The translations under genes were made by a program, and so were the position numbers. The notes beneath the pieces were generated by a model. That model saw only the letters and a program-made list of their open reading frames with translations, made no database searches and had not been told where the DNA came from. A stretch of 64,000 bases of DNA from Octopus vulgaris (Eukaryota): assembly GCA_951406725.2 (NCBI GenBank), contig OX597836.1, forward strand, positions 34,720,001 to 34,784,000, written 5' to 3'. Shown one piece after another: positions 573 through 58,475 of this stretch; position 1 is the stretch's first letter, and the number at the start of each line of letters is the position of its first letter.

Positions 573-624
573 TCCTTACTGAAGAGGCTACGGAGATAGC
601 CGAAACTGAATGTTCAGTATAGGA
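573..624 (+). ncRNA. Type I hammerhead ribozyme motif, canonical core
   Basis: CUGAAGA 579-585; stem II GGCUA/UAGCC; GAAA 602-605; stem III ACUGA/UCAGU; GUA cleavage triplet 617-619; stem I UCC(U)UA/UAGGA. Confidence 0.8.
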
Positions 625-24772: not shown

Positions 24773-25122
24773 TTGTCGAAGACTTCCTTGAAATTTAATT
24801 TGAATATTTGGTCGAAGACCCGTGAATGCAATATGGTTAATGAAGACTGTGAGAACGCTACCCGTATCTCTGTTGTTTACAAGTAACATCTTTGAGGATA
24901 GCTAAAGAGGGCAAGTCGGTCGTTGAGGAAATTCCAACTCGTGATTAAAACTATAACAAATGATGATTTTTTTTTTTCTTAAACACAGTGTTACCAAAAA
25001 AAAAGTCTATATATTCTCCCGAACAAGTGATTTGTAAATACCTAATAAAATGGAAAAATTATCAGAAAAGCTATTGATCATTGAAGAACAGAATGGATTA
25101 AGCAATGCAGGATGATGGAATG

Positions 25123-25167
25123 TGTCGCTGAAGAGGTCACAGATATGTAACGAAAGATTTCCTGACA
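25123..25167 (+). ncRNA. Hammerhead motif, copy 1
   Basis: UGUCG-CUGAAGA-G-GUCACA-GAUA-UGUAAC-GAAA-GAUU-UC-CUGACA. Confidence 0.65.
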
Positions 25168-25169
25168 AA

Positions 25170-25333
25170 GGCGCAGGAGTGGCTGTGTGGTAAGTAACTT
25201 GCTTACCAACCACATGGTTCCGGTTTCAGTTCCACTGAGTGGCACCTTGGGCAAGTGTCTTCTACTATAGCCTCGGGCCGACCAAAGCCTTGTGAGTGGA
25301 TTTGGTAAACGGAAACTGAAAAGAAGCCCGCCG

Positions 25334-25366
<33 letters not shown>

Positions 25367-25590
25367 GTGTGTGTGTGCTTGTGTGTCTGTGTTTGTCCCC
25401 CCCTACATCACTTGACAACCGATGCTGGTGTGTTTACGTCCTCGTAACTTAGCGGTTCGGCAAAAGAGACCGATAGAATAAGTACTAGGCTTCAAAAGAA
25501 TAAGTCCTGGGGTCGATTTGCTCGACTAAAGGCGGTGCTCCAGCATGGCCGCAGCCAAATGACTGAAACAAGTAAAAGAGTAAAAGAGTA
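25170..25590 (+). mobile_element. Full-length SINE family A
   Basis: GGCGCAGGAGTGGCTGTGTGGTAAG (A-box), GTTTCAGTTCC (B-box-like), (AAAAGAGT)2 tail. Confidence 0.95.
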
Positions 25591-25701
25591 TATTCTCCCG
25601 GACAAGTGATTTGTAAATACCTAATAAAGTGGAAAAATTATCAGAAAAGCTATTTATCATGGGAGAACAGAATGGATTAAGCGGTACAGGATGATGGAAT
25701 G

Positions 25702-25746
25702 TGTCGCTGAAGAGGTCACAGATATGTAACGAAAGATTTCCTGACA
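25702..25746 (+). ncRNA. Hammerhead motif, copy 2 (identical to copy 1)
   Basis: Same sequence as 25123-25167. Confidence 0.65.
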
Positions 25747-25799
25747 AAGGACTTAAGTTAACATAAAAATAATAATAAACGAGTGAAGAACGAATAATT

Positions 25800-26413
25800 T
25801 TGGGTTGGTGCATAATTATTGTAGCTTTTTTTTTTTTTAAATTTTATTCAACAAAAACAATAACAACTCGTAACAAAAACATCTTTAAATGATTACCAGC
25901 CCTATAACCCGGCGTTGCCGGATCATAGTGTTAGTGCATACATATACAGCTGCGTGCGTGCGCACATACACGCGAGTACTGTCCAAATATCCGAACAATC
26001 ACATACAGCTAGCTGGCATTCAATTGGCGTATCAAGTTTCGGGCATTTTGATTGGGTTTTGGATAGAAAATTCACAAAAAAGTCACTTCTATTGATTTTT
26101 TAATGATTTTGTGTGGTGACTGGGGAAATGTAAAGATGTGCACGACCACCCTTGGACGGTTTTGAATGACCATAGAAAATGCGAGCCCTGTAACTGAAAA
26201 ATTGTGGATTCGCATAAAGGACACGCACACACACATTTTGCCGTTTATATATAGAGAGATTACGGAGCGTATTCACCATATCTTCAATTACTGTTTCCCA
26301 TTTGCTTGGCAGACGATCAGTCCGTCTTTTGAAGATATTTTTGTTAGATATTGTTGTTTTTGTTGAATAAAATTTGTTGAAAAAAAAGCCGCAATAATTA
26401 TACACCAACGCAA
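25800..26413 (-). mobile_element. Internally deleted mariner element
   Basis: TIRs TTGGGTTGGTGCATAATTATTG / CAATAATTATACACCAACGCAA; C-terminal remnant RRTDRLPSKWETVIE..GEYAP* on the minus strand. Confidence 0.75.
25896..26259 (-). mobile_element. Non-autonomous Helitron nested in the mariner element
   Basis: Minus strand starts TCTCTCTATATATAAA and ends with hairpin CCGGC-AAC-GCCGG then CTGG (CTRR); inserted between A and T with no TSD. Confidence 0.8.
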
Positions 26414-26489: not shown

Positions 26490-26795
26490 AAATCGTATCG
26501 TCGGCTTTATCTTGTATCCTAGAATTTAGTTTATTCTTTGCTGAACATTTCCTTTCTGGTGTTGGTGTTGATAACTCTTTTGACCAATTCTTGCGTAGAA
26601 GAGCCGATGGCATTGACTACATGGTAATCTTGGTGGAGGACGACGTTGATTTTGTTGAGCCTTTCTCTCCTATCGTTTCATTTCTTCCTCTTCTTTTCTG
26701 GTGGCTTCGAAGTTTTTGGTTCCATCAGTGATGGAAAACCGCCACTTGGTACAAGTCTCAAGCTTGTGTTTCAAATGATTTAGGCTCAATTCTAC
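26490..26795 (-). mobile_element. RTE-X-like LINE, 3' end
   Basis: KWRFSITDGTKNFEATRKEEEEMKR*..LPCSQCHRLFYARIGQKSYQHQH (C-terminal zinc finger); a second shorter 3' end lies at 26878-26967. Confidence 0.7.
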
Positions 26796-26853: not shown

Positions 26854-26967
26854 CTCCATAGGTTGCAGTGGGGGCAGCAGCTTTGTCGTGTATCTGAGAA
26901 ATTATTTACTTCTTTGCTGAACGCTTCCTTAATGGTGGTGGCGTTGATAACTCTGCAGACCAATTCT

Positions 26968-27166
26968 TATTTCTTTACTACCCACAAGGGGCCACACGTA
27001 TAGGGGACAAACAAGGACAGACAAACGAATTAAGTCGATTATATCGACCCCAGTGAGTAACTGGTACTTATTTAATCGAGCCCGAAGGGATGAAAGGCAA
27101 AGTCGACCTCGGCGGAATTTGAACTCAGAACGTAGCTGCAGACGAAATACCTATTTCTCTACTACC
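26968..27166 (-). mobile_element. SINE family B, 184 nt unit plus tail junction
   Basis: Family B body; junction at 27151/27152. Confidence 0.9.
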
Positions 27167-36627: not shown

Positions 36628-37031
<404 letters not shown>

Positions 37032-37425
37032 AAAAGAAAGAAAGTTGACCAGAAGAGAATTAATGCATTCGAGCTTTGGTGTTGGAGAAGACTTTTACGG
37101 ATTTCATGGACAGCGAGGCTCACCAATGGAGAAGTTCTTAACCAGATCAATCCGAAACTGTCGCTAGAAGCTAGGATCACCAAGCATAGATTGACATATT
37201 TTGGTCATATTATGCGGAGAAAATCCCTGGAGAAGATCATGCTCGGAATGGCCAGTGGCAAGAGAGGAAGAGGCCGACCAAGAACCTGCTGGCTTGACAC
37301 CATCAAGAGTGATACGGGAATGGACATAGCCAATCTGAAAGAAGCGGCCTAGGATAGAACTGACTGGAGGACACTGATCCAACGAGTAACTGAGAGTCGA
37401 CTTCGACTGAGCGGATAGATAGATA
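37032..37425 (+). mobile_element. RTE (BovB-like) LINE, 3' end
   Basis: RINAFELWCWRRLLRISWT..YFGHIMRR..GKRGRGRPRTCWLD; (TAGA)n tail. Confidence 0.92.
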
Positions 37426-39892: not shown

Positions 39893-40599
39893 TATATACA
39901 TACATATATATACATACTTCACATATACTTTATATTTACTATGTGTATGTATCATACATATGCATACATATACATATACATATATATATATACACGCACA
40001 GATATGCATATACATATATCAGCTTCAAGATAATAGTATTTTTGTTAAGATAATAAATATATCACATCAGTGCACAACAAAAATTTTACCACAATCAATA
40101 GTAGCGCGTATTCAACTGCACAGAATGAATATCACTGTGTGTGTGTGTGTGTGATAAAGTGTCCTCTTAGAAGCAGACACATTTAATATCCTCCTGTACT
40201 GCACTTTATCAAACAAAGAACAAACTCTTAACATAAATTCTAATTAACGATATAAATGCACTTACAATGTTGTTAGACCAAACCGTATAGGATTTCAATC
40301 GAAGAATAAACAAAAATCACATCCACCACCACCACCACCACCACCACCACCTTCGCTACTACTACAACTACTACGACTACTAACGCCCTAACTCAAATAT
40401 AATTGACAGCATTCTTGAAGTTTAGCTCAAAATCCAAGTTAAGGCCTTGTATATAAACCTGATAAAAAGAATCTTGAGAAACACTGAAACCAACGAGAAC
40501 ATTCCAGATAATGATAGAAGCCTTAATGGCGTTCAAGATCGAGCTAGTATTAGGCTCCAAGCTTACTCTTTAGGCTAAAGTAGCGAGGGACTGCAATGA

Positions 40600-41930
40600 A
40601 CCTCGAGGAAACGTGAGGGAACGCGAAGGAACGCGAGGGAAGGTGAAGGAACGTGAGGAAAATGTGAAGGACCGCGGGAGACCGTGAAGGACCGCGAGGG
40701 ACCGTGAGGGAATGTGAAGGGCCACGAAGTAACGTGAGGGAACGCGAAGAAACGCGAGGGACGGTGAAAGAACGTGAGGAAAATGTGAAGGACCGCGAGA
40801 GACCATGAGGAACCGCGAGGGACCGTGAGGGAATGTGAAGGGCCACGAAGTAACGTGAGGGAACGCGAAGAAACGTGAGGGACGGTGAAAGAACGTGAGG
40901 AAAATGTGAAGGACCACGAAAGACCGTGATGGACCGTGAGGGAATGTGAAGGGCCACGAAGTAACGTGAGGGAACGCGAAGAAACGTGAGAGATGGTGAA
41001 AGAACGTGAGGAAAATGTGAAGGACCGCGAGAGACCGTGAGGAACCGCGAGGGACCGTGAGGGAATGTGAAGGGCCACGATGTAACGTGAGGGAACGCGA
41101 AGAAACGTGAGGGATGGTGAAAGAACGTGAGGAAAATGTGAAGGACCGCGAAAGACCGTGATGGACCGTAAGGGAATGTGAAGGGCCACGAAGTAACGTG
41201 AGGGAACGCGAAGAAACGTGAGGGACGGTGAAAGAACGTGAGGAAAATGTGAAGGACCACGAAAGACCGTGAGGGACCATGAGGGAATGTGAAGGGCCAC
41301 GAAGTAACGTGAGGGAACGCGAAGAAACGTGAGAGATGGTAAAAGAACGTGAGGAAAATGTGAAGGACCGCGAGAGACCGTGAGGAACCGCGAGGGACCG
41401 TGAGGGAATGTGAAGGGCCACGATGTAACGTGAGGGAACGCGAAGAAACGTGAGGGACGGTGAAAGAACGTGAGGAAAATGTGAAGGACCGCGAAAGACC
41501 GTGATGGACCGTAAGGGAATGTGAAGGGCCACGAAGTAACGTGAGGGAACGCGAAGAAGCGTGAGAGATGGTGAAAGAACGTGAGGAAAATGTGAAGGAC
41601 CGCGAGAGAACGTGAGGGAATGTGAAGGGCTACGAAGTAACGTGAGGGAACGCGAAGAAACGAGAGGGACAGTGAAAGAACGTGATGAAAATGTGAAGGA
41701 CCGCGAGAGACCGTGAGGGATCGTGGGGGAATGTGAAGGGCCACAAAGTAACGTGACGGAACGCGAAGAAACGTGAGAGATGGTGAAAGAACGTGAGGAA
41801 AATGTGAAGGACCGCGAGAGACCGTGAGGGAATGTAAAGGGCCACGAAGTAACGTGAGGGAACGGGAAGAAACGTGAGAGAACGCGAGGGAGCGCCAAGG
41901 AACGCTGGGGACCGCGAGAGAATGGAAGAG
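40600..41930. repeat. CpG-rich higher-order satellite built from 10 bp monomers
   Basis: Marker GCCACGAAGT at 40721, 40842, 40953, 41074, 41185, 41296, 41417, 41528, 41629, 41740, 41841. Confidence 0.97.
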
Positions 41931-41985
41931 AACTTAAGGGAACGTAAGCTAACAAGATATTTCAAGCGACAGTGCTATTGTTTCT

Positions 41986-55789: not shown

Positions 55790-57090
<1,301 letters not shown>

Positions 57091-57099
57091 AGCATAAAA

Positions 57100-58475
57100 T
57101 CCACCCAGGTATGGATGACTCATTCGGTATTCCTTGAAGAAATCTGTCCAGACTCTGTTTAAAGTGGATGGGATCCTTTTCCTCTTTGATCTCAGCACAA
57201 TGTTCAACAGGGCAGGGCCTGTTGCGGAAAAGAAATTATGTTGCAGTGTACCTATATGCTGTGATCCTGATTTGGGCAGGGTACGTACGGCCCGTGGTCC
57301 CAGCCTTGGATGAACCTTGAAACTAATGTTCAGGTCGTTTGAGCAAAGTTGGCGGTATTCTCCACATCGTACAAATGATGTACCGCTCGCGGCGGCGCTG
57401 GAGAGAGTAGAGTTTCAAGGTTTTAAGGCGGTCCCAATAATCGAGAGCAGTCATGCCTTTAATTCGTTTAGTGAGTGCCCTCTGGGGTGATTCAATCCTC
57501 GATATGTTTTGTCTTGTATGGGGAGACCGCATTGGGCAGCAGTATTCGAGGTGTGGCCTTACAAAGGAGGAGAAAAGCGGTATGATGACACCTTGTTCTC
57601 TGGACCGGAAGGTTCTTAAGATCCAGGAGCTCATCCTACGAGCAATATCGACCTTATTGTTGATGTGGGCACTCCAACTGAGATCGTCATCAACAATTAC
57701 ACCCAGGTCTCTGATATTGTTAGAGGCTGTGAGCGGTTCCCCTGAAGGAAGAGAGTATGGTTGTTTTAGTGAGGAATTTCTTCCAAAATGCATCAGCTCA
57801 AATTTTCCCTCGTTCAGTTGCATTTTGTTTCTGTCTGCCCATTGACTCACAGCATATAGATCAGACTGCAGCTGAGTTCGGTCTGCTTCTTCATTGATGA
57901 TTTGCTGGAGCTTAGTGTCATCAGCAAATATTTTCACTTTGCAGTAATGTACGACGCTGGAAAGGTCGTTTATGCATATTATAAAGAGTAGCGGGCCGAA
58001 GACAGTCCCCTGGGGGACACCGCTGGTGACTTTTGCTGGGCTTGAGTGGACTCCATCGACTACAACATGTGTTCTATTCACCAGGAAATACTTAATCCAG
58101 TGTAGAAGTTTTCCACGGATTCCAACATTTGCCAATTTTGAGAGTAGGATATTATGATCAACCCTGTCGAACGCTTTACTGAAGTCAAGATATATAACAT
58201 CAGAGTTCGAACCTGTTCCCAAGGCTTTAAGTATATCTTCAATGTGGTGTAAGAGCTGTGTTAGACAGTCCCTGCCAGAGTTTGTGGGTCTCCAGGAAGT
58301 CAGATATCCTTGATCTTAACACTCTTTCAAACACTTTAATGATGTGGGAGGTGAGTGAGATTGGGCGATAGTTGACTGCGTATGATCTGTTTCCATATTT
58401 GAAAACCGGGATGGCAGACTGGAATAGAAGCTGTTTCGGTATATAACCTGAGTCTAACCAATTTGTCAATAGTAC
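57100..58475 (-). pseudogene. CR1/L2-type LINE reverse transcriptase, disrupted
   Basis: NYRPISLTS; YLDFSKAFDRVDH; SGVPQGTVFGPLLF; FADDTK; RPHLEYC; LYSLQRRRER; frameshifts at both ends of the 299 aa ORF. Confidence 0.93.

Follow-up and report, generated by a model that had tools for sequence, protein, structure and literature searches.

A SINE between two copies of a decayed hammerhead motif in Octopus vulgaris: probable outcome of an unusually long target-site duplication

Hammerhead ribozymes are described as a general feature of canonical Penelope-like elements (10.1101/2021.04.23.441226). The minimal hammerheads of these elements have an extra base between positions 9 and 10.1, a G10.1-C11.1 pair and a palindromic stem III strand, according to PMC4209133 (Cervera and de la Pena, 2014), which reports them as mostly solitary and present in thousands of copies. 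The same source describes minimal metazoan hammerheads as cleaving poorly even when intact and as having low activity even as dimers. Non-LTR retrozymes are presented as multicopy tandems of whole units, 150–450 bp long, that are expressed as circles (PMC7229834). Retrozymes are reported to carry mostly canonical active ribozymes and to yield abundant circular RNA (PMC7229834; bioRxiv 10.64898/2026.07.22.740005), and the non-LTR forms probably descend from Penelope pLTRs (bioRxiv 10.64898/2026.07.22.740005).

A different set of related systems is formed by non-LTR retroposons with long target-site duplications (TSDs). The TSD of RTE-1 in C. elegans is about 200 bp long. One of 25 ZfL2-2 insertions is reported with a TSD of 1,228 bp (PMC2666801), and R9 with one of 126 bp, 10–20 bp being the norm (PMC6895275). 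For the Octopus vulgaris genome, a SINE content of 11.6% and the presence of Penelope-like elements have been described (PMC13282606).

We analyzed 64,000 nucleotides of Octopus vulgaris DNA (GCA_951406725.2, contig OX597836.1, positions 34,720,001 to 34,784,000 of the forward strand; the window). An initial annotation had described a cassette there in which a SINE lies between two direct repeats, each with a hammerhead motif, and had proposed a retrozyme-like unit of 579 nt, with an unusually long TSD as the alternative. Our literature search returned no description of duplicated hammerheads on either side of a SINE, nor of the one-step birth of a retrozyme with SINE capture.

The SINE and its flanking repeats

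Direct-repeat and BLAST comparisons within the window recovered the two 162-bp repeats that had been annotated on either side of the SINE. The left copy (25010–25171, plus strand), likely one half of a TSD, runs on from a low-copy upstream flank, and the right copy (25589–25750, plus strand) runs on into the downstream flank. The copies are 95% identical and their starts lie 579 nt apart, which bears out the annotated unit size as a matter of arithmetic. They differ at eight positions of the repeat (13, 41, 67, 73, 75, 95, 96, and 98), all within the first ∼98 bp, as had been noted before, and the final 64 nt contain no mismatch. The identity of the ribozyme-bearing end is thus real, but its reading as a trace of selection does not hold: a gap of at least 64 nt among eight uniformly placed changes has P = 0.16 (P = 0.018 for that end alone, an end picked post hoc), and since such gaps arise in 16% of trials, the identity gives no evidence for selection on the ribozyme. 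The grouping of mismatches at 67–75 and 95–96 is not significant either. Five of the eight mismatches have A in the left copy and G in the right (25010–25107 versus 25589–25686).

The element between the repeats is a full-length SINE from an abundant family (25169–25590, plus strand), delimited by BLAST within the window and by contig ends in public runs, which we take to be an octopus SINE. It consists of a Pol III box-like head, an internal TA/TG microsatellite (25334–25378, plus strand) and a short tail of two tandem GTAAAAGA units, and it overlaps the repeats by AGG at its 5′ end (25169–25171) and by TA at its 3′ end (25589–25590). The A and B box strings in the head were picked by eye against the box consensus; the B-box region departs from the family at 25224 and 25231. 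ARAGORN and Rfam found no tRNA in the head. The family is high-copy, non-coding and interspersed with fixed ends, and is represented by 25 more BLAST pieces within the window and by hundreds of thousands of matching contigs per DNA run. Its 5′ end at 25169 is marked by 824, 614, and 495 loose contig ends before that position in runs X2, X6, and X8, respectively, and other SINE copies in the window also begin with AG. The SINE therefore starts 7 nt after the first predicted cut site and not 9 nt, as originally proposed. Family 3′ ends fall at 25577–25593, frequently with TA runs behind them (340 and 272 contigs have TA-run loose ends behind 25593).

Several other features were seen in the window. 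A C-terminal remnant of an RTE-like LINE, recognized by eye, lies at 36990–37352 (plus strand); it has no DNA likeness to the SINE tail. A second pair of direct repeats is located close to the cassette (26504–26592 and 26880–26968; 89 nt, 81% identity, 376 nt apart). At 40585–41945 we found a GC-rich satellite with 111/121-nt subunits, a 232/343-nt higher order and long open frames on the minus strand.

Hammerhead motifs and neighboring frames

Each repeat ends in a hammerhead motif, as the initial annotation had stated: CTGAAGA is present at 25128 and 25707, a UUC triplet ends at 25161 and 25740, and cuts are predicted after 25161 (C17) in the left copy and after 25740 in the right. In the left motif (25123–25167, plus strand), read against the layout in PMC4209133, stem I is formed by 25123–25127 and 25162–25167, with U25163 bulged next to the predicted cut. 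The core (25128–25134) is followed by an extra G25135, stem II (25136–25141 and 25146–25151) contains one C-A mismatch, GAAA occupies 25152–25155, and a six-base near-palindrome (25155–25160) would form two G-U pairs in a dimer. The right motif (25702–25746, plus strand) has the same sequence. Of the consensus traits, the motif has the core, the additional base ahead of stem II, G10.1-C11.1 and a stem III strand that is palindromic but for two G-U pairs; judged by its letters, the motif is a Penelope-type minimal type I hammerhead in layout. None of stems I–III is intact, in agreement with the earlier description: there is a bulge in I, a mismatch in II and wobbles in III. Both copies carry the same three defects, which are thus older than the duplication.

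A relaxed hammerhead descriptor, made by hand and written after the motif had been seen, gave four matches in the window, two of them to these motifs, compared with 0.05 on average over 40 shuffles; the motif exceeds chance. A strict descriptor had no match in the window. An Rfam search with the motif returned no gathering-level match and no hammerhead family at E ≤ 10, a miss that we do not count as evidence because Rfam is insensitive here and barely detects a cleaner motif at 579 (E 2.4). This other type I hammerhead (574–623, plus strand) has a perfect 5-bp stem II, a stem III of 5–6 bp and a stem I with one bulge, and its weak Rfam match is to RAGATH-1; compared with the motifs at 25123 and 25702, it is the stronger candidate for cleavage as a monomer. 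A looser listing contained 13 core strings in the window, and four others among them are hammerheads or relics by eye (579 plus, 28957 minus, 38709 plus, and 48957 plus), the last three decayed. The by-eye count in this window suggests about one hammerhead relic per 10–15 kb of genome.

No Penelope ORF (reverse transcriptase and GIY-YIG endonuclease) was found beside the hammerheads when 12 frames were compared with Pfam; the sole family returned was Chromo (E 2.9e-5; 24.3 bits, under the cut-off of 25.1). It corresponds to a decayed chromodomain-like frame in the right copy (25591–25677, plus strand), which in the left copy is interrupted by a stop at 25075–25077. In the PDB, 33 of 39 weak matches were named chromodomain proteins (best E 0.045). 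Protein searches returned no close relative of the peptide; the nine matches in one of them comprised six multi-chromodomain proteins and three unrelated repeat proteins, and a protein search with the frame at 24773 had no matches. The frame at 25590 also resembles by eye the endonuclease end of Penelope, a likeness that is not significant (p 0.16–0.35), and because of it any polarization of the eight repeat differences by the chromodomain frame is tentative. Just 5′ of the chromodomain-like frame, at 24960–24990 (plus strand), a polypyrimidine tract that ends in CAG resembles a splice acceptor. The chromodomain-like relic may be a dead exon.

Farther away, an open frame on the minus strand (56676–57119) looks by eye like the GIY-YIG endonuclease end of a Neptune-type Penelope-like element and abuts a CR1-like reverse transcriptase remnant (57323–58315). 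The ∼550 nt downstream of this frame contain no hammerhead core, and a protein search with the remnant returned no homologue.

Copy depth in related organisms

We used four of 24 public runs, three DNA or unlabeled (organisms B, C, and D) and one guessed to be RNA (organism A), at 88% likeness; copy number is judged here from contig depth in relatives, and the depths given are summed contig depths, which are not copy numbers. The upstream flank (24790–24933) has a depth of 41–48 in B and no coverage in C and D. Within the repeat, the depth at 25686 is 126 in B (∼3 times single-copy) and 11 in C (∼1 times single-copy). At 25724 in the ribozyme core it reaches 121,163, 4,592, and 7,994 in B, C, and D, or about 2,700, 400, and 1,600 times single-copy (in run X2, 121,163 versus 31–48 on unique flank). 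This high-depth plateau is ∼33 nt wide; position 25724, located in loop II, is mostly G, with 73 contigs having G there in run X2. Because the contrast amounts to two to three orders of magnitude, the depths indicate that the ∼33-nt hammerhead core belongs to an abundant family in the related genomes but that there is no amplification of the cassette, since the repeat outside the core and the upstream flank are both low-copy. Pattern scans of metagenome contigs for the hammerhead core, and of metagenome, prokaryote-genome and viral contigs for the SINE head, gave no match, and this animal is evidently absent from those collections.

Individual contigs cover parts of the locus. A contig of B spans 24790–25135 (three other letters and four gaps, depth 31), one of C spans 25626–25741 (one other letter, depth 10.9, its neighbor 11.1), and one of D spans 25712–25824 (three other letters) and passes 25750 unbroken. 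In B, the expected merge point is where both types stop: the left-type contig at 25135, and the right-type contig, which has the 25686 change, 29 letters from that change at ∼25714. This reading of break points assumes unitig contigs built on 31-letter words. Since its contigs end where the copies become identical, B has both copies. The right-type contig of C passes the merge point and continues to 25741 at single-copy depth. There is a weak hint of a single-copy, empty site in C and D, and private changes or missing contigs could give the same pattern. Among the joints listed for contigs of the related organisms, in which SINE matches dominated, none skips 579 nt. In run X13, guessed to be RNA, no repeat piece was among those listed, and there is little depth at 24982–25125 and none at 25606–25653, gaps that prove nothing.

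An assembly artefact was considered as the cause of the duplication and is ruled out by the presence of both copy types in organism B. At 25686, organisms B and C have the letter of the left copy, and the difference at this position is missing from the relatives. Most repeat changes, as polarized by the relatives, are apparently on the left copy, an asymmetry without explanation. Three homopolymer runs (24995, 25017, and 25053) are each longer by one base in the contig of B; these are either true differences or homopolymer errors in the assembly of the window.

Origin of the duplication and likeness to known systems

The repeat boundaries coincide with the ends of the SINE and not with the cleavage sites, and they share 2–3 nt of microhomology with the element. 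Repeats bounded in this way have the anatomy of a long TSD, and the alternative already raised in the initial annotation is the best fit to these boundaries and to the low copy number of the repeat. It is probable that the SINE inserted by chance beside an inactive relic and that a long TSD copied the decayed hammerhead. The relic itself lies just past the decayed chromodomain-like frame and probably represents a short fragment left by an abundant Penelope-like family. In the sequence of events that we propose, a LINE endonuclease would have nicked the bottom strand at a TA run near 25010 (25008–25014, plus strand, the putative priming site for the first strand). The tail of the SINE RNA would then have primed reverse transcription at the nick, sharing TA with the target, and the 5′ end would have been joined ∼160 bp downstream via the AGG microhomology, which would place the insertion point 7 bases downstream of a pre-existing, damaged and likely inactive hammerhead. 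Filling in the stagger would have copied the intervening 157–162 bp, hammerhead relic included, and both copies and the SINE would have decayed neutrally since.

The two copies of the repeat provide an internal clock for the SINE insertion. Their divergence of 8/162 (4.9%, i.e. 2.5% per copy) matches that of the SINE, 2–4%, which has at least seven differences in ∼353 nt from the family majority (at least 2.0%) and 14 in 349 nt (4.0%) from copies in the window. An observation against a TSD is that, if the site in C is empty, the left copy has acquired ∼6 changes in 98 nt and the right copy one, and this left excess of ∼6:1 is larger than predicted from the A–C distance of ∼1%. The excess and the A/G skew are left unexplained by a long TSD, which keeps explanations by repair or by a cDNA step alive.

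A TSD of this length is atypical for the SINE family: comparing TSD lengths within the window only, we found a long flanking repeat in one of 11 SINE copies (seven of which have the 3′ tail), namely this one, and one further high-scoring copy has microsatellite on both sides. The adjacency is unusual as well. With ∼5 relics and seven SINE starts per 64 kb, ∼0.004 cases per window are expected in which a SINE starts at most 15 nt downstream of a relic on the same strand. Such cases become rarer still if a long duplication is required. They are rare per window, but a few are to be expected in a gigabase genome; the locus came from a first screen that favored oddities.

The mobile, retrozyme-like cassette of the initial annotation is not borne out, given that the repeats end with the SINE, that their non-core part has a depth of only 1–3 times single-copy and that the stem defects predate the duplication. 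The same long TSD could nevertheless have created a retrozyme by accident, if the two hammerheads acted as a dimer and freed a 579-nt linear or circular SINE RNA from a read-through transcript. We regard this as very unlikely. In its favor, neither copy has a damaged catalytic core, the motif agrees with the minimal consensus described in PMC4209133 in its extra base, in G10.1-C11.1 and in its near-palindromic stem III strand, and the left stem I outlives the SINE insertion, the SINE start leaving it intact by one base. A dimer has a nested fold in which all six stem III pairs are possible, two of them G-U, but this fold lies 27.5 kcal/mol above the ensemble (a value without a matched dimer control), and the stem III duplex was computed at 0.0 kcal/mol. 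The bulge by the cut site and the mismatch in stem II also speak against activity, and PMC4209133 describes dimers of even intact minimal motifs as only weakly active. For the monomer, the folding penalty of 7.8–15 kcal/mol compares with 7.7–13 kcal/mol for the cleaner motif at 579; because these values fail to separate the motif from its control, we base the presumed inactivity on the stem defects and on the literature. Transcription by Pol III from the SINE start would begin 7 nt past the left cut, and the RNA would skip the left ribozyme, carry the right motif only and stop at the first T-run at 25798; the B-box changes at 25224 and 25231 weigh further against this reading. Release of a 579-nt RNA would putatively need read-through from upstream, and self-cleavage and circle formation are unlikely. 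That the insertion gave rise in one step to a working cassette releasing a 579-nt circle, possibly with a general bias of this SINE to finish its insertion at sites just downstream of hammerheads, we hold to be equally improbable. If the cassette did cleave and circularize, it would represent a one-step route to new retrozyme-like units capturing a SINE.

Two further explanations involve the copying step itself. Penelope machinery might have mobilized the unit, with a circular SINE-hammerhead RNA reverse-transcribed for more than one turn to give a partial tandem. Penelope-like elements are indeed described as forming partial tandems with a hammerhead per repeat (10.1101/2021.04.23.441226; PMC4209133), the window contains the possible endonuclease remnant seen by eye at 56676–57119, and the excess of A on the left and G on the right could come from an RNA/cDNA step. 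This course of events would, however, require that the left copy happened to end precisely at the SINE tail; both copies run on into the outer flanks, the non-core repeat is low in depth with no donor locus visible, and the SINE has no matching G-to-A excess, all of which makes such a mobilization a remote prospect. Repair or recombination at insertion could also have produced the duplication, for example if a diverged allele of the homologous chromosome had served as the template for the left copy. This would account for the clustered differences (67–75 and 95–96) and for the larger number of changes that the left copy may have when compared with organism C, but the clustering is not significant, the total divergence already fits the age of the SINE and more steps are needed than for a staggered cut, and we consider this origin very unlikely.

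Our best reading is therefore a single SINE copy with an unusually long TSD in nested repeat debris, of little consequence in itself. It carries a caution, as target duplication alone can yield a tandem-hammerhead layout. As in metazoan non-LTR retrozymes, two type I hammerheads lie on the same strand a few hundred bases apart and would define a monomer. In contrast to retrozymes, the repetition here covers 162 of the 579 nt and not the whole unit head to tail; the cassette is apparently confined to a single locus, its unit exceeds theirs in length and its motif is of the damaged minimal type. As neither whole-unit tandems nor multiple copies were found, we do not class the locus as a retrozyme, which it resembles in layout only. 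The minimal hammerheads of Penelope-like elements (PMC4209133) differ from the present motifs, in which every stem is damaged and no Penelope ORF adjoins, and a SINE rather than a reverse transcriptase-endonuclease ORF lies between the copies. With long-TSD insertions of SINEs and LINEs the locus shares a full-length non-LTR retroposon, repeats that the element ends delimit, microhomology at the 5′ end and a 3′ tail of short repeats; it differs from them in that the target carries a hammerhead relic.
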